NCBI GenBank assembly: GCA_036918135.1
Contig: JBALDB010000018.1
Coordinates: forward strand, 32,001-96,000
From: Nostoc sp.
GTDB lineage: Bacteria > Cyanobacteriota > Cyanobacteriia > Cyanobacteriales > Nostocaceae
Length of the DNA: 64,000 nucleotides
Reading direction: 5' to 3'
The notes beneath the pieces were generated by a model that did no database searches, had not been told where the DNA came from, and saw only the letters and a list, made by a program, of their open reading frames with translations. A program made the translations under genes and the position numbers. Below, piece by piece: positions 1,318-24,697 of this stretch (the stretch's first letter is position 1; each line of letters opens with the position of its first letter).

Positions 1318-3993
1318 ATGGCTGATACAAACGGCAACGGTAGAAATGTCATTATTTTTGTGGCGGATGGATTGCGTAATGGTTCTGTAAACCCGACTGA
1401 CGCCCCAACTTTATATAGCATCCGCCAGCAGGGAGTTAATTTTACTAACAGTCATTCGCTATTTCCGACATTTACCACTCCGAATGCTTCGGCGATCGCC
1501 ACAGGACATTATCTTGGAGATACAGGTGACTTTAGCAATACTGTCTACACTGGTTTTCCTGTTCCTAATGCTAACGGCAGTGTCACACCATTCATCGAAA
1601 ATGATGCAGTTCTCGGAGATATTGACGAAAAGTTTCCTGGAAACAACTTTCTTGATGAAGAGTCACTGCTATCCTATGCACGGGCGCAAGGCTTCAATAC
1701 CGCTGCAATTGGTAAGCTAGGGCCAGTTGCCATCCAAGATGTCACACAAGTAAACCGAGATAGCGGCACTGATAGCAATATTCCCACCCCAGATACTGTA
1801 ATTATCGACGATCGCACAGGTGCAGCAGCTAATCCGGTAACAGGTTCACCTCAAGCTGTACCACTCGATCCTGATATAGCAGCTCGTCTAGAAGCAGTTG
1901 GCCTACCCACTACAACTCCTGGTAGAGGGGCAAATGGTAATTCTGGCAATAACACAACTCCTGGAACTACAGTTGCCAATGTTGACCAGCAACAGTTCTT
2001 TATCGATGCCACTACCAAGGCAGTTCTCCCGAAGTTTCAGACAGAGGATAAACCATTCGTATTGGTTTACTGGTCAAGAGACCCTGACGGAACTCAACAC
2101 AATCAAGGTGATAGCTTAAACAGTTTGACACCGGGCATCAATGGTGATACTTCCAAAGCTGGAATCAAGAATGCTGACAATAACTTAAAGCAGCTTCTTG
2201 ATTACCTCAAAAGTACAGGTTTGGACAAAACTACAGATGTCTTTATTACTGCTGACCACGGTTTTTCCACCATCAGCAAACAAGTTACTGATAACCAAGG
2301 CACAACAACAAATAGTTATGCTGCAACTCAAACCTACGCTGGTGTCAATCCTGGATTTCTACCACCAGGTTTTGTTGCGATTGATTTGGCTCACGATTTA
2401 AATCTACCTTTATACGATCCTGATAAAAATACAGTCACTCCTTTAGACATCGATAACATTCAGTATGCTGCTGTTGATGCAACACAAGGTCAACGCCCGA
2501 CAGCTGGGAATGGTGTAATTGGCGGTAGCGGTCAGGTAATTGATGGCCACCTCGACTCAGCCACAAAGGTAGTTGTAGCTGCTAACGGTGGTTCGGATCT
2601 GATTTATTTGCCCAATGGTAATGCTGACCTAGCCAAACAGGTAGTGAATTTGCTTTCGCAAAAAGACTACATCAGTGGTATTTTCGTAGATGACGCCTAT
2701 GGAAACATTCCAGGTGCTTTACCACTAAGTGCGATCGGGCTAAAAGGTAATGCTCAAACACCCGTTCCAGCGATTGTAATCAACTTCAAAACCTTTAGTA
2801 CCGACCCAAATAACCCAAACAACCCTCAAGCTGAGGTAGAGATTGCTGACACAGGCTTACAACAAGGGCAAGGGATGCATGGCAGTTTTGGTCGGGGCGA
2901 TACCTTCAATAACATGGAGGCTATTGGCCCTGATTTCAAATCAGGTTATGTAGACTATGCACCTGTCAGTAATGCTGACGTAACACCCACACTCGCTAAG
3001 ATTTTGGGTTTGAATATTCCTAGTAATGGCGATTTGAAAGGTCGTGCCATCACAGAGGCATTAGTGGGAGGGCCTGATTCAGTCTCCTTCACCCAAGGAA
3101 CCTTGACTTCAGAAGAAGCTGCTAACGGTCAAACAACAATTCTCAACTATCAGAGTGTAGGTAATACTCAGTACTTTACAGCAGCAGGGTTTGCCGATCG
3201 CACTGTTGGACTATCAACATTAGATGTTGATTTTGGTACTACAAGTAGCGATGATGTCACCCTCAAGTCAAACCAAACCTTATTCACAGGCGACGGAGCA
3301 GACTTTGTAGAAGGTACTACAGGTAACACAATCCAGACTGGCAATGGTGATGACACTGTATTGGTAGGCAGTAACTCTTCAGTATCCGCAGGAGACGGAG
3401 ATGATAATGTCTTTATTGGTCAAAATGGTGCTGCTAGCAATACCAGCGCTGATGGTGGCAATGGTGATGACCAAATCACAGTAATCGAAGCCAATGGTAG
3501 TAATAACCTATTTGGAGGCGCAGGTGCTGATACTCTGACAGTAGTTGAAGGTTCGCGTCAATTATCCTTTGGTGGTTCAGGTAAGGATACCCTCAAGAGT
3601 GAAGGTAGCAATAACCGTTTGTATGGTGGTTCTGGAGATGACAAACTCTTCTCTGGTGTCAATGACTTGTTGTTTGGTGGCGATGGCGATGATGTGCTAT
3701 TTGCTGGTCAAGGAGGTGGTAATAGCCTCAGTGGCGGTACTGGTGCAGACCAGTTTTGGATAGCCAATGGCAGTTTACCAACTAGCAACAACACCATTTC
3801 TGACTTCAGCATCGGTGTTGACAAAATTGGACTTGGTGGTATTGGTGTCACTCAATTTAGTGCCTTAACTCTATTGCAACAAGGTAGTGACACTTTAGTG
3901 AAAATCGGAAATACACAGTTGGCTTCATTAGTTGGAATTACCTCAACTAGCCTTACAGCAAATGACTTTGTTTTTGCTGCTAGTGTGATTTAG
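1318..3993 (+). CDS. Alkaline phosphatase superfamily (nucleotide pyrophosphatase/phosphodiesterase) with C-terminal RTX-like repeats
   Basis: [33 protein letters not shown] motifs; GGxGxD repeats; AAGGAG RBS. Confidence 0.85.
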
Positions 3994-4274
3994 CCAAAAG
4001 ATGATTACAGCTTAAATTCAATATTCCAAATTAACTAATGCTGTAATGATTTTGCTTATACGAGGGAGTGATACTCCTTCGCTTTTTATATGAGCAACGT
4101 GAAACCCAACATGGATAAGGATGTTGGGTTTTCTAATTGTGGAGTGGGTGTCTCAGTTGTCTGGAACAAAAGACGGGTAAGATACCTACCCCACAAGATT
4201 AGATAATTTATTTGTTGGAAGTCCTTAATACTTACTCTCATAACCTACGCTAATCCGTATTTGTTCAAAAAATT

Positions 4275-4378
4275 TGTAGTATCTCCTTGACAATATGTAT
4301 TTTATATATTACAAATGTAGTATGAGAACAAAAGCTTTTCTAAAAGGCTAAGGCAAAACATCTCAGAACCTAGAAAAC
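4275..4378 (+). promoter_or_regulatory. Putative promoter/leader of the RNA array: TGTAGTAT repeats, TTGACA, boxB-like hairpin and boxA-like element
   Basis: TGTAGTAT 4275 and 4316; TTGACA 4287; hairpin AGCTTTT-CTA-AAAGGCT 4333-4349; GAACCTAGAAAAC 4366-4378. Confidence 0.5.
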
Positions 4379-4401
4379 CGAATAGCAAGTTACGACTTTT
4401 T

Positions 4402-4482
4402 GGGGTCGCGATTGGTGTTCGACTGCTCCGAAACCAACAAACGGACGGTAGCAGGATTCGGGTTCAATTCCCGACGACTCCA
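4402..4482 (+). ncRNA. Mini tmRNA-like RNA (tRNA-like domain only)
   Basis: GGGGTCG/CGACTCC-A acceptor with G3.U70; unpaired D-loop ending TTCGAC; helix CTGCT/AGCAG; T-arm TCGGG-TTCAATT-CCCGA; no tag ORF. Confidence 0.7.
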
Positions 4483-4499: not shown

Positions 4500-4706
4500 G
4501 GGTCTGTAACTCTAATGGTAGAGCGCCCAGATTCACTTGTGCTCTGACAGAAAAAGCTTACATACTTGCTCAAAGGTAGAGCGATCGTCTCTAAAACGAT
4601 AAGTGCAGGTTCAATTCCTGCGGTGTAACCACAGCTTTTTCAACTCGCACGAAGTGTGAGTGCAACTCTCACAGGGAAGGTATCGGTTCAATTCCGATCA
4701 GATCCA
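4500..4706 (+). ncRNA. tRNA-like RNA whose anticodon arm is replaced by scaffold cassette 1
   Basis: Acceptor GGGTCTG/CAGATCC-A; D-arm ACTC-TAATGGTA-GAGC; T-arm ATCGG-TTCAATT-CCGAT. Confidence 0.7.
4534..4656 (+). ncRNA. Scaffold cassette 1 carrying a tRNA body with CUA anticodon
   Basis: GTGC..GAAAAAGC-TTACATA..GCTTTTTC-AACTC-GCAC; D-arm GCTC/GAGC; ATCGT-CTCTAAA-ACGAT; GCAGG-TTCAATT-CCTGC. Confidence 0.75.
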
Positions 4707-4732: not shown

Positions 4733-4948
<216 letters not shown>

Positions 4949-4961
4949 AATATTTAGTTAA

Positions 4962-5141
4962 CCATGCCCTAACAGAAGAAGCATACATACACATTCATAA
5001 CGATCCTAAGGTAGTAAAATTCGAGCGATCAAACTAGCGAAGTATGATTTATAAATTTTTTGCAGATTTAGCATACGTGCCCACTGCCAATAGTTGGTAA
5101 GAGCGATCGTAAGCTGTAAAAAGCTTCTTAAACTTGTACGG
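4962..5141 (+). ncRNA. Scaffold cassette 2 carrying a permuted 23S rRNA domain IV (H67-H71) mimic
   Basis: AAGAAGC/GCTTCTT stem; ATAACGATCCTAAGGTAGTAAAATTC vs 23S ATAACGGTCCTAAGGTAGCGAAATTC. Confidence 0.7.
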
Positions 5142-5156
5142 ATTAATTGAAGAATT

Positions 5157-5300
5157 AATTCCGCGCCCTGACTTGTAAAGCATACAAACATATATCCGGT
5201 AACGGAATACAGGTTCGATTCCTGTCGCTCCCTTTGATGGGAGCGTAGCCAAATTGGTAAAGGCAACTGTGAAAACTGCTTTGCTAACTTGTGCGGAATT
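5157..5300 (+). ncRNA. Scaffold cassette 3: circularly permuted tRNA (YrlA-like Y RNA architecture)
   Basis: T-arm ACAGG-TTCGATT-CCTGT; acceptor CGCTCCC-TTTGAT-GGGAGCG closed by a loop; D-arm GCC-AAATTGGTAAA-GGC. Confidence 0.8.
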
Positions 5301-5361
5301 TCAATTATTTAAAATAGTAGTGTTTAGAGCAAGCCTTAGTGATTTTTCAAAACTAAAACTT

Positions 5362-5491
<130 letters not shown>

Positions 5492-5649: not shown

Positions 5650-6030
5650 ATGTCTGTGAACACTCTAGAAATTTTAGAGCAAATCAAGTCTCTAAATGTC
5701 AATGAAACCGCTCAATTAGTAAAGCAGATTGAAGCAACTTTCAATGTCGATATATCCACACCTAAATTCCTTAAGATTGACAAGCGAGATGAGGATGAAA
5801 CTCAACCGCAGATTCAAACGGAATTTGATGTCTTGTTGGTATCGGTTCCAACAGAGAAAAAGATTGCCTTACTCAAGGTCATCCGGACGGTGACTGGACT
5901 GGGACTCAAAGAAGCAAAAGACTTTGTAGAATCCCTGCCTCAAGTAGTTCAAGCAGGACTGAATCAAGAAGCGGCTGAAATTCTTAAGCAGCAGCTAGAG
6001 GAAACAGGAGCAGTTGTTTCTCTGATGTAA
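5650..6030 (+). CDS. rplL: Divergent ribosomal protein L7/L12 paralog
   Basis: TEFDV..KKIALLKVIRTVTGLGLKEAKDFVE C-terminal domain; no rplJ/rplA/rplK adjacent. Confidence 0.85.
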   Translation: MSVNTLEILEQIKSLNVNETAQLVKQIEATFNVDISTPKFLKIDKRDEDETQPQIQTEFDVLLVSVPTEKKIALLKVIRTVTGLGLKEAKDFVESLPQVVQAGLNQEAAEILKQQLEETGAVVSLM

Positions 6031-9240: not shown

Positions 9241-9549
<309 letters not shown>

Positions 9550-9735
9550 TGAAATCATTCTGCGTATGCAGATAAAGGTTTTGATGCTCTGAGTAATTTA
9601 GCTTTTTTGTCTTTGTTGAAATAAGGCTGTAAATTAAAGGGTTTAAGATCCGCTTTGTAGGCATAACTAGCAGCCAAAATATTTACCGGAAAGTAACAAG
9701 TGTTAATTGTAGTATAATGTAGTATTAGAATCTCA

Positions 9736-9938
9736 TGCGTGCCCCAACTCGTGGAGCCTACATATTAGTACGAGAGGAAGGTAACACTGCCGAATGCAGT
9801 GGGCGTTAGTGAACGGGGAGTGCGAAGAACCTGGAAAGTGGGCTTAGAAGTAGCCATCTTTGAAAGAGTGTGTAACAACTCACCAGCGGAGTCCCTCTAG
9901 TAACTGAGAAAACGCAATGCTCCACCAACTTGCACGCA
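9736..9938 (+). ncRNA. Scaffold cassette 6 carrying 23S sarcin-ricin loop and H42-H44 GTPase-centre mimics
   Basis: TGCGTGC/GCACGCA; GTGGAGC/GCTCCAC; AGTACGAGAGGA 9767-9778; GGCTTAGAAGTAGCCATCTTTGAAAGAGTGTGTAACAACTCAC. Confidence 0.8.
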
Positions 9939-10030
9939 GAATTATACAGTAATCTTAAATTATTCGTTAGAACCAAGATACCCGACTTCTTTTGAAAAGT
10001 TGGGTATCTAAACCCTACTGAGCGATAAAA

Positions 10031-10551: not shown

Positions 10552-11382
10552 ATGACTGACATCCGTAAGCTAATCAACCAAATTGCTAGCGCAGAAGCAC
10601 AGTTGTGTAATACTCAATTTCTTGCGCCTTGTGTAAAAGGTGGACGAGTTCGCACACGAGTAGTAGGGATGGTCTATACCTTCACACCAAAGCCGAATAA
10701 ATTTGAAGGTTGGGGTATTTTTCAGCCGGTGGATGAGAAGATAGCAATGGTTGTGGAAGAGGCAGATTTACCTCAAATTGCCGAATACCTGCAACACTTT
10801 CCCCAAATACGGCTGCGGCTAGCATACCAACTGCGGGGACAAAGTTGGTTAGCATACCCCGTGAATGAAGCAGATATACGTCAACGGTTGCAGGTGGTTA
10901 AACCGATCGCCATTCATCTAGTAACTGAAAGTATTATTTTTGACCAAATCATCGCCCGTTGGAATGGACAGTCCTGCTGGTTTGAGGAAATCGATCATCG
11001 TACCGATCCGGCTATTGTTGAAACTCTGCAATCAGCTGTTAAGCAACTGATTCCCGTTGAAGAATTGCAATTTAAAGGCATAACGCCAGAAATTCGCACA
11101 GTCTATGAATTAGCAACACGGCAAATTGAAGGCTTTGGGCAACCCCAACAGGATGAAAAGCGATTGAGAAAGGCATTGCAGATGGGTGGCGGTGAATTAA
11201 AGCAGTTTCACGATCGCGGTGATTACTGGACAGTGGACTGGACAACTGCTGATGGTGTTCGCCACAGTAGTGCGATCGCCAAAACTGACTTGACTGTAAT
11301 CAGTTCTGGTATTTGCCTAAGTGGATACGATCGCAACTTTGACTTGCAATCGTTAGTTGGTGTAATGGAACAACAAGAGTAG
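10552..11382 (+). CDS. Hypothetical protein with possible E2-like C-terminal Cys motif
   Basis: 276 aa ORF 24 bp upstream of ThiF; SSGICLSG near C-terminus. Confidence 0.7.
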   Translation: MTDIRKLINQIASAEAQLCNTQFLAPCVKGGRVRTRVVGMVYTFTPKPNKFEGWGIFQPVDEKIAMVVEEADLPQIAEYLQHFPQIRLRLAYQLRGQSWLAYPVNEADIRQRLQVVKPIAIHLVTESIIFDQIIARWNGQSCWFEEIDHRTDPAIVETLQSAVKQLIPVEELQFKGITPEIRTVYELATRQIEGFGQPQQDEKRLRKALQMGGGELKQFHDRGDYWTVDWTTADGVRHSSAIAKTDLTVISSGICLSGYDRNFDLQSLVGVMEQQE

Positions 11383-11406: not shown

Positions 11407-12045
11407 ATGAGTATCTTTTTTCACGAACAGCTTTACCGCAGCAATGCTGTGATGGCAAAGTTGAAAAACTATCCTGTAACAATTTGTGGGGCGGGGGCGT
11501 TAGGGGCTAATATTGCTGAGAATATGGCTCGGTCTGGTTTTGATAAACTGACAGTAATCGATTGCGATCGCATTGAGGAGCGTAATCTTTCCACCCAGCC
11601 TTACTACCGTTCCGATGTTGGAGCATTCAAAGCAAAAATATTGGCAAACAATTTATACCGAGCAATTGGTACTAAAGTTGATGCTAAAACCAAAGAATTG
11701 ACATCAGCAAATGTCAATCAACTACTCCAAGATAGTCAATTAATTATTGATGCTTTTGACAATAGCGTAGCACGTCAATTAGTAAAAGATTATGCCACTC
11801 AATTTAGCATTCCTTGTCTTCATGCTGGGCTAGCAGTTGATTATGCAGAGGTAATTTGGAATGATGTTTATCGCGTTCCTTCTGAGGTTAATGATGATGT
11901 TTGTGATTATCCTTTGGCACGAAACTTAGTAATATTAACCGTTGCTGTAGTATCGGAAGCGATTGTTTCATTTATTGCCACAACAGAACGGCGTAACTTC
12001 ACCATCACTTTGAAGGATTTGACTGTTCAACCTTTGTTTTTGTAG
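11407..12045 (+). CDS. ThiF/MoeB/E1-family adenylyltransferase
   Basis: ICGAGALG, DCDRIEERNLSTQ, KAK, IIDAFDN; candidate catalytic Cys in VCDY. Confidence 0.9.
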   Translation: MSIFFHEQLYRSNAVMAKLKNYPVTICGAGALGANIAENMARSGFDKLTVIDCDRIEERNLSTQPYYRSDVGAFKAKILANNLYRAIGTKVDAKTKELTSANVNQLLQDSQLIIDAFDNSVARQLVKDYATQFSIPCLHAGLAVDYAEVIWNDVYRVPSEVNDDVCDYPLARNLVILTVAVVSEAIVSFIATTERRNFTITLKDLTVQPLFL

Positions 12046-15015: not shown

Positions 15016-15540
15016 CTACTCGCTTTCATTCATCCGTTGTACGCTCCAAAAATGTTCTGCAAATGCAACGGCGGGGTGAATTGGAGCTTTAGGCTTGGTT
15101 TTGAGTACCATAGATGCTTCATGAGGTAAGCGATCGCTCTTAGTTGAGTTACACTTCTCGCAGGCAGTTACAACGTTATCCCAACTATGCTGTCCACCTT
15201 TGGAACGAGGAATCACATGGTCAAGGGTTAAACGCTTACCGCTACCACAGTATTGACAAGTATGATTATCGCGCTTGAGTACTTCACGACGATTTACAGG
15301 AGGTACTTTCCAGTGTCGTTCTGGATTACCCGTTGTCAAACGAATGTGTTCCGGAACTTGTAGTACAATACTGGGCGAGCGGACTTCCCACTGCTTTGTA
15401 CTGCCAAAATTCAATGATTCTGCTTGACCAGTAACTAACAGTACTATTGCTCGTTTGATGTTGATACGTGCCAATGGTAAGTAGTTCTTGGAGAAGACTA
15501 CCACCGAATTTTGTAGTATGTGTGGCTGCTGAACTTGCAT
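15016..15540 (-). CDS. HNH endonuclease
   Basis: RDNHTCQYCG, LTLDHVIPRSKGG, NVVTACEKCNSTK; GAGGAG RBS before ATG 15540. Confidence 0.9.
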   Translation of the reverse strand: MQVQQPHILQNSVVVFSKNYLPLARINIKRAIVLLVTGQAESLNFGSTKQWEVRSPSIVLQVPEHIRLTTGNPERHWKVPPVNRREVLKRDNHTCQYCGSGKRLTLDHVIPRSKGGQHSWDNVVTACEKCNSTKSDRLPHEASMVLKTKPKAPIHPAVAFAEHFWSVQRMNESE

Positions 15541-15556
15541 GGATAAAGAGCTCCTC

Positions 15557-15598
15557 AAAAAAATAACCCCCACTTCTGGTTATCAGCAGCGGGGGTCA
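15557..15598 (-). terminator. Intrinsic terminator in the HNH leader (attenuator candidate)
   Basis: Minus strand TGACCCCCGCTGCTG-ATAAC-CAGAAGTGGGGGTTA-T7. Confidence 0.7.
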
Positions 15599-22969: not shown

Positions 22970-24697
22970 CTAATGACTAATGACTAATTGTGGTTTTCCC
23001 CAAAGGATGGTCTCTTGCTTATAAATGGCAATTCCTGGTTTTGCTCCTTTGGGTTTGTAGACGTGTTTTAGCTGAGTGTATACTACTGGCACTTGGTCAC
23101 TCTGACGGGCGCGACTGTAGTAAGCAGCAAGATTAGCTACAAATTGTAAATCAGCTTCTTCTGCAACAGCACCGGGTTCAAGACGTAGTAGCACATGGCT
23201 ACCTGGAATTTCTTGAGCGTGAAACCATAGGTCATAATCCCCAGCTACACGAAAAGTCAATTGGTCATTTTGGCGATTGTTACGACCGATCAAAACTTCA
23301 AAGCCACTAGGAGTAAGGTAATGATAAAAGTTACTTGTAGAGGCTTCATTGTTGGTGCGATCGCGGTATTCTGGATCTTCGAGATACTTTTGCCCAATCA
23401 GTTCTTCGCGGATTTCTTCTAAAGCTTGCAAATCTTGTGCTGTTTGGTAGTTGTCTATTTGGTCGATCGCAGCTTGTACTTGTTCCAAATAGTCTATTTC
23501 TGTCTGCGCTTCTAAAAGTAGCGGTTCTACAGCAGAACGAGCGCGTTTGAGTTTTTGGTGCTGTTTGTAAAGACTTTGGGCATTTTGGACGGCGTTTTTA
23601 TCTGGTTGGAGAGCGATCGCTATTGGCTGATTAGTCTCAAAATCTGGGATAATTATTTCTTTCATCCCTGGTTCCCAGTTTTGCAGGTGAGCCATTAATA
23701 AATCTGCTTTTTGCCGATACTCATCAGCTCGATCTGATTGCTGCAAGCGTGTCTTAAAAGTTTGAGCTTTATTGTGTAATTTCCCCAAAATATTATTTAA
23801 TTTCTGACTCAACTGATGGCGCAATTGAGAAAATAACTGTTGATTGAGTTGGTCAGTGTAGTAACGGTTGAGTAATTCTTGAATGTCTTTAACGCTTTCC
23901 ACTCCACCCCAACCCATTACTGTATAGCCGTCTTTTGTCCAAGCGGGTTGAAATTTCCCAGAATCCAAGGTTTGCAGCCATTCTTGCCAATGCTCAAACA
24001 ATCTTTGCCAATCCTCTGGTTTGAGTGTATCGGTGGATGTTTCTGGTAGAATATTTGCTGCTAAGAGCATTGATTCTAACAATGCTGCACTCAAACCACT
24101 ATAACTTTTGAGTAATTGCCGCTTGATTGCTCCTGGTACTAAGCTTACGCGTTCTTGCCAGCGTTGTTGAGATTCGCTCAAATTGGGGATAGTCCCAATA
24201 AGTTTTGGTGGTGTTTCGTAAGGTTGTCCGGTTTGGATAGGACGGACACTAGATTGTTGCTGACTGACTTGATGGGCAGCAGTAATAATTATATTGCTAG
24301 CGTCAGTGAGAATGACGTTGCTATACTTGCCCATAATTTCTGCATAGACATGATATAGGGCGTTTTCTCCGGGACGCCGAGCAAATTGTAAATCAATAAC
24401 CCGTTCCCAAGGAGCGATCGCTTCAATTGCTACTAAAGCCAAACCAGCCAATTGGTGTATCAGTTGTTGGCTAAAAGTGAAGGTATCGGGAATTCGCGGT
24501 GGCGGATCGGTGATGCAAATATGTGCAGCTTGAGGATGCCAAGAAATCTCTAGCCAACCCCGTTGTTTCAAGGTGCGTAATGCTATGGCAATAGTGTAGC
24601 GATCGCGCTGATAAACTTGCTCTAAGCGTGATGGTAGCCAGCTTGCACGAATTTCGCTACAAGCAGCTGTGAGAGTGGTAAAGTCAACTGGTTGCAA
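22970..24697 (-). CDS. NFACT (RqcH/FbpA) family protein
   Basis: EIMGKYSN, GRNNRQND, WFHAQEIPGSH, KPKGAKPG. Confidence 0.93.
   Translation of the reverse strand: MQPVDFTTLTAACSEIRASWLPSRLEQVYQRDRYTIAIALRTLKQRGWLEISWHPQAAHICITDPPPRIPDTFTFSQQLIHQLAGLALVAIEAIAPWERVIDLQFARRPGENALYHVYAEIMGKYSNVILTDASNIIITAAHQVSQQQSSVRPIQTGQPYETPPKLIGTIPNLSESQQRWQERVSLVPGAIKRQLLKSYSGLSAALLESMLLAANILPETSTDTLKPEDWQRLFEHWQEWLQTLDSGKFQPAWTKDGYTVMGWGGVESVKDIQELLNRYYTDQLNQQLFSQLRHQLSQKLNNILGKLHNKAQTFKTRLQQSDRADEYRQKADLLMAHLQNWEPGMKEIIIPDFETNQPIAIALQPDKNAVQNAQSLYKQHQKLKRARSAVEPLLLEAQTEIDYLEQVQAAIDQIDNYQTAQDLQALEEIREELIGQKYLEDPEYRDRTNNEASTSNFYHYLTPSGFEVLIGRNNRQNDQLTFRVAGDYDLWFHAQEIPGSHVLLRLEPGAVAEEADLQFVANLAAYYSRARQSDQVPVVYTQLKHVYKPKGAKPGIAIYKQETILWGKPQLVISH

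Follow-up and report, generated by a model that had tools for sequence, protein, structure and literature searches.

The 64,000-nt window analysed here, a stretch of a Nostoc sp. genome (GenBank assembly GCA_036918135.1, contig JBALDB010000018.1, positions 32,001 to 96,000 of the forward strand), carries at positions 4402-4482 an 81-nt gene for a transfer-messenger RNA (tmRNA) tRNA-like domain (TLD), in one piece and with the tag open reading frame (ORF) absent. It is a real, conserved and accessory tagless tmRNA. Judged by its sequence it is a one-piece tmRNA without coding sequence (CDS) of the type known from mycobacteriophage DS6A, a kind that has already been published and is not categorically new. 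It is notable for being a cellular gene, found in a translation-stress regulon of a genome that also has a full-length ssrA, and for a copy that had escaped notice in a model operon. Coordinates without an accession or another locus name refer to the window.

Structure of the short tmRNA gene

With the Rfam tmRNA model RF00023 the gene scores 43.2 bits (E 7.4e-15) and is aligned to both of its ends (model positions 1-374), 314 model positions being replaced by 22 nt in the cmscan alignment. The acceptor stem pairs in full and places G3 opposite U70, and the counterparts of the SmpB-contact bases of the T-arm, the D-region and the linker are, as far as the sequence tells, all present (Table 1). 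A truncated helix 2 stands in place of the pseudoknots and the mRNA-like domain, and resume codon, tag ORF and conserved stop are likewise absent from the 81-mer. The gene looks, from its sequence, like a tmRNA that was cut and closed within helix 2, and the AAA/A internal loop of the closed arm is also found in helix 2 of E. coli tmRNA when the two are compared. The fold has a z-score of -2.4 and is equally good in 3 of 200 shuffles.

A preliminary description of this DNA had proposed a TLD with alanine identity (G3·U70 and A73), a short GAT linker, a canonical T-arm, no tag ORF and no encoded CCA, and had named a search with the tmRNA model and the presence of a separate ssrA as checks. The RF00023 match, the covariation, the homology to the DS6A gene and the conservation of the identity bases across homologues (see below) bear out the TLD, the other elements are found as proposed, and a full ssrA lies on another contig. 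Two statements hold in part. Helix 2 is indeed capped early, but the length of about 22 nt given for it is that of the part skipped by the model, the whole arm measuring 32 nt. The D-region is there with its GG, but whether its loop is stemless, as had been stated, is uncertain: a 3-bp D-stem (pairs 8-20, 9-19 and 10-18) is part of the minimum-energy fold and has 96.7% of its cells paired in 30 homologues, and its covariation is weak, with one pair showing a double change and a value as high in 176 of 500 shuffles. The trailer that follows A73 is CTG, and the missing CCA is no defect, because the full ssrA of the host also lacks an encoded CCA.

The RF00023 score lies below the gathering cut-off of 47 bits, and ARAGORN calls neither a tRNA nor a tmRNA at 4402-4482. 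The gene is missed by a gathering-level Rfam scan as well as by ARAGORN because about 314 model positions are absent and the score falls under the cut-off; three homologues score 47.4-52.4 bits. In the list of Rfam matches, where overlapping matches of one clan give way to the best, RF02544 (mitochondrial tmRNA) does not appear at the 81-mer.

Several other identities were considered and rejected. A plain tRNA-Ala would have a 5-bp anticodon stem and a loop with U33, neither of which is present, and ARAGORN makes no such call; the Y RNA model RF02553 matches 5208-5264 and not 4402-4482. A permuted tmRNA is ruled out, with the two halves in standard order, a score of only 16.5 bits (E 3.7) for RF04321 and no conserved complement of the loop nearby. 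A micro-tag within the arm was also rejected: no stop triplet occurs in any frame of the capped arm in 40 of 44 intact copies, and the single UAG in the arm of the window copy is found in 1 of the 44. An alternative pairing of the cap (26-29 with 41-44) shows no double changes; the register preferred to it is backed by only 5 double-change cells in helix 2. A trans-acting mRNA partner for the terminal loop was dismissed, its complement being found in 3 of 44 loci as against 4.2 in shuffles.

Conservation and distribution of the family

A family model, R1, was built from 30 copies that include those of the window and of the Anabaena PCC 7120 trn operon (see below), so that their scores of 109.9 and 96.3 bits, respectively, are those of training members; the best tRNA reaches 25.8 bits. 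Covariation was measured in the unfitted alignment A3, which holds 30 of 38 chosen rows and leaves out the 79-nt copies and the distant copy on the metagenomic contig L175. In it 99.0% of cells are paired and 8 of 21 pairs show double changes, a result matched in none of 500 shuffles, and slid controls stay at or below 51%. Acceptor pairs 1-3 are invariant in the 30 aligned homologues, pairs 5-7 account for 24 double changes, and three pairs of the T-stem covary.

The alanine identity is kept with particular strictness. U70 is present in all 44 distinct intact copies and is never replaced by C, and the neighbouring pair 4:69 varies in 11 of them; since G1-G3 and A73 were used as a filter for calling a copy intact and U70 was not, only the 3' partners are informative here. 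By this sequence criterion, intact copies are under selection for alanine identity. The counterparts of the residues named as SmpB contacts of tmRNA in PMC8363625 are U17 in 43, C18 in 40, G19 in 34 (with A in 9 and C in 1) and A334 in 43 of the 44 copies. Copy length is constant at 79-81 nt, and a 17-nt core of the cap is identical in 35 of the 44, which is partly an artefact in that two of the searches used this core.

R1 matches were obtained in 23 of 151 genomes of the host's family and in 3 of 151 genomes of a phylum sample, and a search with the cap pattern was positive for 28 of 401 class genomes, covering six families in addition to the host's, with no match in the reversed control. 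Homologues sit either in long tRNA arrays or at the head of an operon with a Ro60-like gene and Y-RNA-like modules: 55 of 80 named Nostoc-type loci around the gene for the 477-aa Ro60-like protein (see below) hold a copy, and 27 of the 29 loci from the class search (window excluded) have at least seven tRNA genes, the RNA lying usually between tRNA-Arg(CCG) and tRNA-Cys. One copy, at locus L137, is a stand-alone gene behind the same type of promoter. Where the acceptor is intact, 21 of 24 copies in the class sample encode the CCA, compared with 9 of 50 in Nostoc-type loci. Among the matches listed from the RF00023 scan of the 151 phylum genomes, four are short: the window copy, one true homologue and two (L040 and L041) that proved to be plain tRNA-Ala and were discarded.

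A pattern scan of metagenomes gave 43 matches, 33 of them in a TLD context; the remaining 10 were dropped as chance. One distant copy (1113-1192, 43.1 bits with R1) lies on L175, a metagenomic contig with small unassigned ORFs that we read as phage-like; it has the same cap core, a C at the position of G19 and 47 of 81 positions identical overall. The contig also holds, at 2669-3046, a gene for a protein with an L7/L12 C-terminal domain. In viral contigs a first scan gave no match and a second gave six, none of them in a TLD, and a blastn search of phages, which also missed DS6A, returned short 3' matches only. Contigs assembled from three RNA sequencing runs of two studies include homologues of both RNA and operon, but these come from other strains, the copies carry the T-loop insertion, the contigs show no ends and DNA carry-over is possible; eight expression runs contained 5-10% of the query words.

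Host ssrA and smpB

In the host genome, which is 99.99% complete, a full-length ssrA (128.6 bits, tag ANNIVKFARREALVAA) lies on a different contig, and there is one smpB. All five carriers tested from five other families also have a full ssrA, and in one of these (G288) the short copy is of the broken type and gave no match in that scan; each of five carriers tested for smpB has a single one. No SmpB relative was found in 208 fetched loci, and given this and the single smpB of the host, the short RNA would have to borrow the host's SmpB. The possibility that the gene is an integration-site scar or a recent duplicate of the host ssrA was rejected, both TLD halves being present and the last 29 nt of the gene being identical to the host ssrA at 16 positions only (E. 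coli ssrA, 23; DS6A, 21).

Comparison with other tmRNAs and tRNA-like RNAs

The closest known RNA is the TLD-only tmRNA of mycobacteriophage DS6A (PMC4131195), which is likewise in one piece and in standard 5'-3' order, measures 80 nt instead of 81, and shares the G3·U70/A73 identity, a capped helix 2 with an AAA-containing internal loop and the lack of an encoded CCA. It scores 49.3 bits (E 4.6e-11) with R1 although it was outside the training set, and is identical to the 81-mer at 54 of 82 aligned positions. Unlike the phage gene, the one described here is cellular, is found on chromosomes and plasmids beside the cell's own ssrA and in stress-type operons, and has a different terminal cap.

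PMC11915505 counts nine 'standard, no CDS' tmRNA genes and names as holders DS6A, the plastids of two Mallomonadaceae, mitochondria and two groups of bacteria for which the case is doubtful; cyanobacteria are not named among them in the main account of that paper. Full-text searches of the literature returned no account of a cyanobacterial TLD-only tmRNA, table S2 of PMC11915505 lying outside that coverage and a database entry being possible. The CDS-less organellar tmRNAs (jakobid and oomycete mitochondria, and plastid genes of about 65 nt in Mallomonadaceae) also keep the TLD without a tag frame, but they are described as the organelle's sole tmRNA and as mostly permuted (PMC11915505), whereas the 81-mer is an extra gene beside a full ssrA. 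With full-length tmRNA (RF00023) it shares the acceptor stem, the D-region, the linker, the T-arm and the base of helix 2, but has none of the pseudoknots, the resume codon and the tag, and no conserved stop. As in the bacterial Ro60/Rsr-Y RNA loci with YrlA (as described in PMC4201824), the window also has a gene with a Ro60 fold and a YrlA-like permuted module. The 81-mer itself is no Y RNA: its two halves are in unpermuted order, its acceptor end is free, and it is without the repeated cassette ends found around the other RNA modules of the operon.

Promoter and relation to the trn operon of PCC 7120

Upstream of the gene lies a putative promoter flanked by two TGTAGTAT sites (Table 1), which is not listed by a consensus promoter scan. 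When the leader (4266-4384) is aligned to the sequence in front of the PCC 7120 trn operon, the score is 100, as against a maximum of 37 in 1000 shuffles. In that operon TGTAGTAT over the -10 box is the footprinted site of the repressor TrcR (PMC10272220), and 4306-4323 shares 13 of 18 bases with the TrcR-protected motif as quoted there. A site of this type is present within 700 bp upstream in 53 of 55 Nostoc-type copies. Pairs of TGTAGTAY sites at most 60 bp apart number two in the whole genome, both in the window, where about 0.6 would be expected by chance; this clustering is only suggestive. The candidate repressor gene of the host was found via a neighbour protein assumed to be TrcR from its position alone. 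From these sequence features we infer that TrcR may repress the window promoter.

The trn operon is reported to be induced 100-1000-fold by ribosome antibiotics and to be processed into RNAs of 70-100 nt (PMC8421152), and rtcB is described as belonging to the same TrcR regulon in PCC 7120 (PMC10272220, PMC8421152); the host has two RtcB genes. The operon, described with 26 tRNA genes (PMC8421152, PMC10272220), holds between trnE-UUC and trnY an intact but divergent copy of the short gene (NC_003273.1, 51739-51819, minus strand) that is identical to the window copy at 64 of 81 positions. A tmRNA is not mentioned in the main text of either paper or in the readable supplement of PMC8421152, and the feature table of the plasmid has nothing at this place, that table containing no RNA genes at all. 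The two settings share a homologous promoter-leader and each holds a copy, but the host copy heads a Ro60-like operon and the host's tRNA array has none. Inside the trn operon (L154, 3470-3510) there is a remnant of a cassette 3' end like that at 5457-5490 of the window, which suggests exchange between trn and Ro60-like operons.

Function of the short RNA: possible roles

We see an even balance of probability for the reading that this is a stress-induced, alanylated RNA that borrows the host's SmpB, enters stalled ribosomes and adds untagged alanine. Impaired translation would derepress the operon, and RNase P, RNase Z and CCA-adding enzymes would excise the RNA as they do the neighbouring tRNAs. 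Once charged with alanine by alanyl-tRNA synthetase, it would compete with tmRNA for the vacant A site of stalled (non-stop) 70S ribosomes, enter there together with EF-Tu and the host's SmpB, accept the nascent chain and be translocated. With no resume codon, tag or stop, the A site would then be empty again and the chain longer by at least one untemplated alanine, and it would fall to a further round, to full tmRNA or to splitting of the subunits to finish the extended chain. Such a mechanism would resemble the first half of trans-translation, uncoupled from tagging. A precedent in vitro is the template-free synthesis of poly-alanine by a TLD fragment with SmpB, as related in a review (PMC3929946). 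On the evolutionary side, it seems to us an evenly poised matter that a tagless tmRNA head has spread horizontally and been retained in the translation-stress regulon of cyanobacteria as an accessory component.

A number of observations weigh against this reading. The only in vivo precedent is inhibition. In the predicted fold the 3-bp D-stem could bury the SmpB-contact bases, and the near-invariant terminal loop is left unexplained by a model of alanine addition. Only two PF00472 proteins, both of release-factor length, were found in the host, which leaves it without an obvious ArfB-type factor for the release of the alanylated chain. The complete set G19/A20/G333/A334 is present in only 27 of the 44 intact copies, and the phage-like L175 copy has C at G19, a change that is said to abolish trans-translation (PMC8363625). 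The gene is moreover dispensable and accessory: its distribution is patchy and about one-third of copies are damaged, 17 of 55 in Nostoc-type loci and 11 of 29 in the class sample, in that they carry a T-loop insertion of 19-44 nt, have a broken acceptor or lack a recognisable 3' end. The promoter and the downstream ORF occur without a copy in at least 16 of the 80 Nostoc-type loci, and among the 55 of 151 family genomes with the Ro60-like gene, 21 have an R1 match and 34 have none.

The T-loop insert is itself recurrent. It is hairpin-like, is found in short tmRNA copies (L047, L127, L155 and others) as well as in array tRNAs of many genomes, and looks like a small mobile repeat that targets T-loops.

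The alternative that survives best, though we hold it to be unlikely, is a brake on trans-translation: the RNA would titrate SmpB or block the A site unproductively, and stalled ribosomes with their nascent chains would be spared tagging and destruction during RNA repair. A TLD-only RNA has been reported to inhibit tmRNA in E. coli, perhaps by titrating SmpB (PMC4131195, PMC11915505), and the single smpB in every carrier tested, the architecture shared with the phage DS6A RNA, the copy on the phage-like contig, and the place of rtcB in the PCC 7120 regulon together with the two RtcB genes of the host would all fit. However, an uncharged TLD-like molecule is reported to inhibit tmRNA as well as a charged one (PMC4131195, citing Mao 2009). 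With inhibition independent of charging, a pure sink would not need a conserved alanine identity, and yet this identity is the most strictly kept feature; since it is kept more strictly than the SmpB-contact set, ribosome entry is favoured. The benefit of damping the main rescue system under translation stress is also, we reason, not obvious. The two readings are compatible in that an RNA entering ribosomes would compete with tmRNA as well. The decoy or regulator of trans-translation of which the preliminary description had spoken is a fair reading with precedent, but an alanine identity so strictly conserved is at least as good a pointer to an RNA that actively enters ribosomes as to one that is a passive decoy.

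Less probable again is a structural decoy or repair substrate that acts away from the ribosome and draws ribonucleases, toxins or a dedicated RNA-binding protein, in part through its terminal loop. It would suit an operon full of mimics (tRNA-like, YrlA-like and 23S-rRNA-like modules, an L7/L12 paralogue and a Ro60-like gene), and the constancy of the cap core, which extends to the distant L175 copy, would be accounted for. But the 81-mer lacks the cassette ends and in most other families lies in tRNA arrays, the DS6A cap is different, the constancy of the cap is inflated by the cap-based searches, and the search for complementary loop partners, mentioned above, found none.

That the gene is a non-functional passenger, a decaying phage or plasmid tmRNA remnant carried in mobile tRNA arrays, we regard as very improbable. 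Its patchy distribution in family and phylum, the frequent insertions, broken copies and clean losses would fit such a remnant, and the tRNA arrays known as L-arrays are reported to spread horizontally and to contain pseudogenes (PMC8421152). For intact copies, however, this view is largely refuted by the covariation in the aligned sequences, where pairing far exceeds that of the slid controls, and the constant length, the occurrence in two operon settings and as the stand-alone L137 gene behind the same promoter type, and the architecture shared with DS6A also speak against it.

An aberrant alanine-charged tRNA that decodes with its 7-nt loop (middle triplet CAA) and acts as a stress mistranslator hardly merits consideration: the fold can be arranged in four arms as a cloverleaf, with a D-stem of 3 bp and a loop of 7 nt, and the gene sits among tRNA genes, but there is no U at position 33, the arm has about 9-10 bp with internal loops instead of 5 bp, ARAGORN is silent, the best match in the clan is tmRNA and the AAA/A loop is that of E. 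coli helix 2.

The downstream operon and neighbouring genes

From the spacing and the common strand we infer that the short gene is co-transcribed with the genes and RNA modules downstream of it (Table 1).

Table 1. Features of the short tmRNA gene, its promoter region and the downstream operon (window coordinates)
Feature	Position	Strand	Remarks
Putative promoter with TrcR-type repressor sites	4275-4323	+	-35 TTGACA 4287-4292, 17-nt spacer, -10-like TACAAA 4310-4315
TGTAGTAT sites	4275-4282 and 4316-4323	+	Flank the promoter-like element
Tagless mini-tmRNA gene (tRNA-like domain only)	4402-4482	+	81 nt including discriminator A73 (4482); RF00023, family model R1, covariation
Acceptor stem, 5' strand	4402-4408	+	7 bp, full pairing with 4475-4481; G3 (4404) opposite U70 (4479)
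D-region	4409-4422	+	14 nt, GG; counterparts of E. coli tmRNA U17, C18, G19, A20; 3-bp stem possible
Truncated helix 2	4423-4454	+	32 nt: two short stems, AAA/A internal loop, CC/GG pair, 7-nt terminal loop
Linker GAT and T-arm	4455-4474	+	GAT 4455-4457, counterpart of E. coli G333-A334-C335; T-arm 4458-4474, 5-bp stem, 7-nt loop
Second RNA	4500-4706	+	tRNA-Ala-like shell (G3·U70, A73, D- and T-arms); anticodon arm replaced by repeated cassette
Nested cloverleaf, CTA (amber-reading) anticodon	4559-4628	+	Within cassette of 4500-4706
69-aa ORF without family match	4739-4948	+	Homologues in 75 of 80 loci
Three further RNA cassettes	4964-5490	+	Repeat families D2 and D6
YrlA-like permuted tRNA module	5208-5264	+	RF02553, 24.1 bits, E 0.1, far below cut-off
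tRNA-Arg(GCG)-like cloverleaf	5389-5462	+	RF00005
Ribosomal protein L7/L12 paralogue	5650-6030	+	PF00542, PF16320; TIGR00855 above cut-off
Divergent Ro60/Rsr (TROVE and vWA) protein, 477 aa	6239-7672	+	Profile matches and predicted fold

The second RNA (fold z -2.7) is well conserved in relatives. The cassettes share repeated ends around differing cores (tRNA-like, YrlA-like or unassigned), with 5' ends at 4539, 4964, 5163, 5369 and 6109 and 3' ends at 4623-4656 and 5457-5490, and are probably the Y-RNA equivalents of the Ro60-like protein. The L7/L12 paralogue has a tblastn match in only 28 of 80 related loci. By profile and predicted fold the 477-aa protein is a divergent Ro60/Rsr: it gives profile matches to human RO60 (E 5.6e-17) and Deinococcus Rsr (E 8.7e-8), and its model, built from 85 sequences with a predicted local distance difference test score (pLDDT) of 89, has Ro60/TROVE structures as all of its top 12 Foldseek hits (template modelling scores 0.60-0.70). 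Pfam detects the vWA domain only, the TROVE model missing the protein, which has 1011 relatives at 50% clustering. A 179-nt piece of its gene is duplicated 2.3 kb downstream (9337-9515) at 93% identity.

A similar cassette at 9708-9940, behind tandem TGTAGTAT sites of its own, surrounds 56 nt that match positions 1093-1148 of the 23S rRNA model at 51 bits, above the cut-off, a segment that we take to be the L11-binding, GTPase-associated domain; a related 47-nt stretch lies on contig C56. Two further genes regularly accompany the Ro60-like one: an ORF of 276 aa that matches no family (10552-11382, in 71 of 80 loci) and a ThiF/E1-like gene (11407-12045, in 68 of 80). We would guess that, together with the 69-aa ORF, they form a small-protein conjugation system. 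Elsewhere in the window there are an HNH gene (15016-15573) that is 64-87% identical to those preceding tRNA arrays, an RqcH-type NFACT gene (22970-24697) 18 kb from the short RNA gene, and two adjacent phosphatase-type genes (3-917 and 3168-3993) with near-identical RTX-repeat tails.

Implications

Reports of CDS-less tmRNAs have so far concerned mitochondria, the plastids of two algae, one phage and two little-known groups of bacteria (PMC11915505). A cellular family with a copy in an inducible operon of a genetically tractable cyanobacterium makes the function of a tagless tmRNA directly testable, and deletion and repressor mutants are described as available for the PCC 7120 operon (PMC10272220, PMC8421152). 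The short RNA is, in addition, a marker of an operon in which RNA mimics surround a Ro60 protein that is too divergent for the Pfam TROVE model. If alanine tailing is true, there would be a new route of ribosome rescue; if SmpB titration is true, a host-encoded regulator of trans-translation.

The most far-reaching version, in which bacteria encode a natural, stress-induced and tagless rescue RNA that, alanine-charged and paired with the host's SmpB, moves from one stalled 70S ribosome to the next and adds a tail of alanines for which there is no template, is put forward only tentatively, and we incline to doubt it. Were it true, the RNA would be a counterpart of RqcH tailing made of RNA only and acting ahead of the splitting of the subunits, and would head an undescribed operon of translation mimics, among them nested RNAs that resemble tRNA, Y RNA and 23S rRNA, an L7/L12 paralogue and a divergent Ro60. 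The PCC 7120 copy could then explain part of the survival benefit of the trn operon, and would offer a tractable model for the tagless tmRNA of mitochondria.
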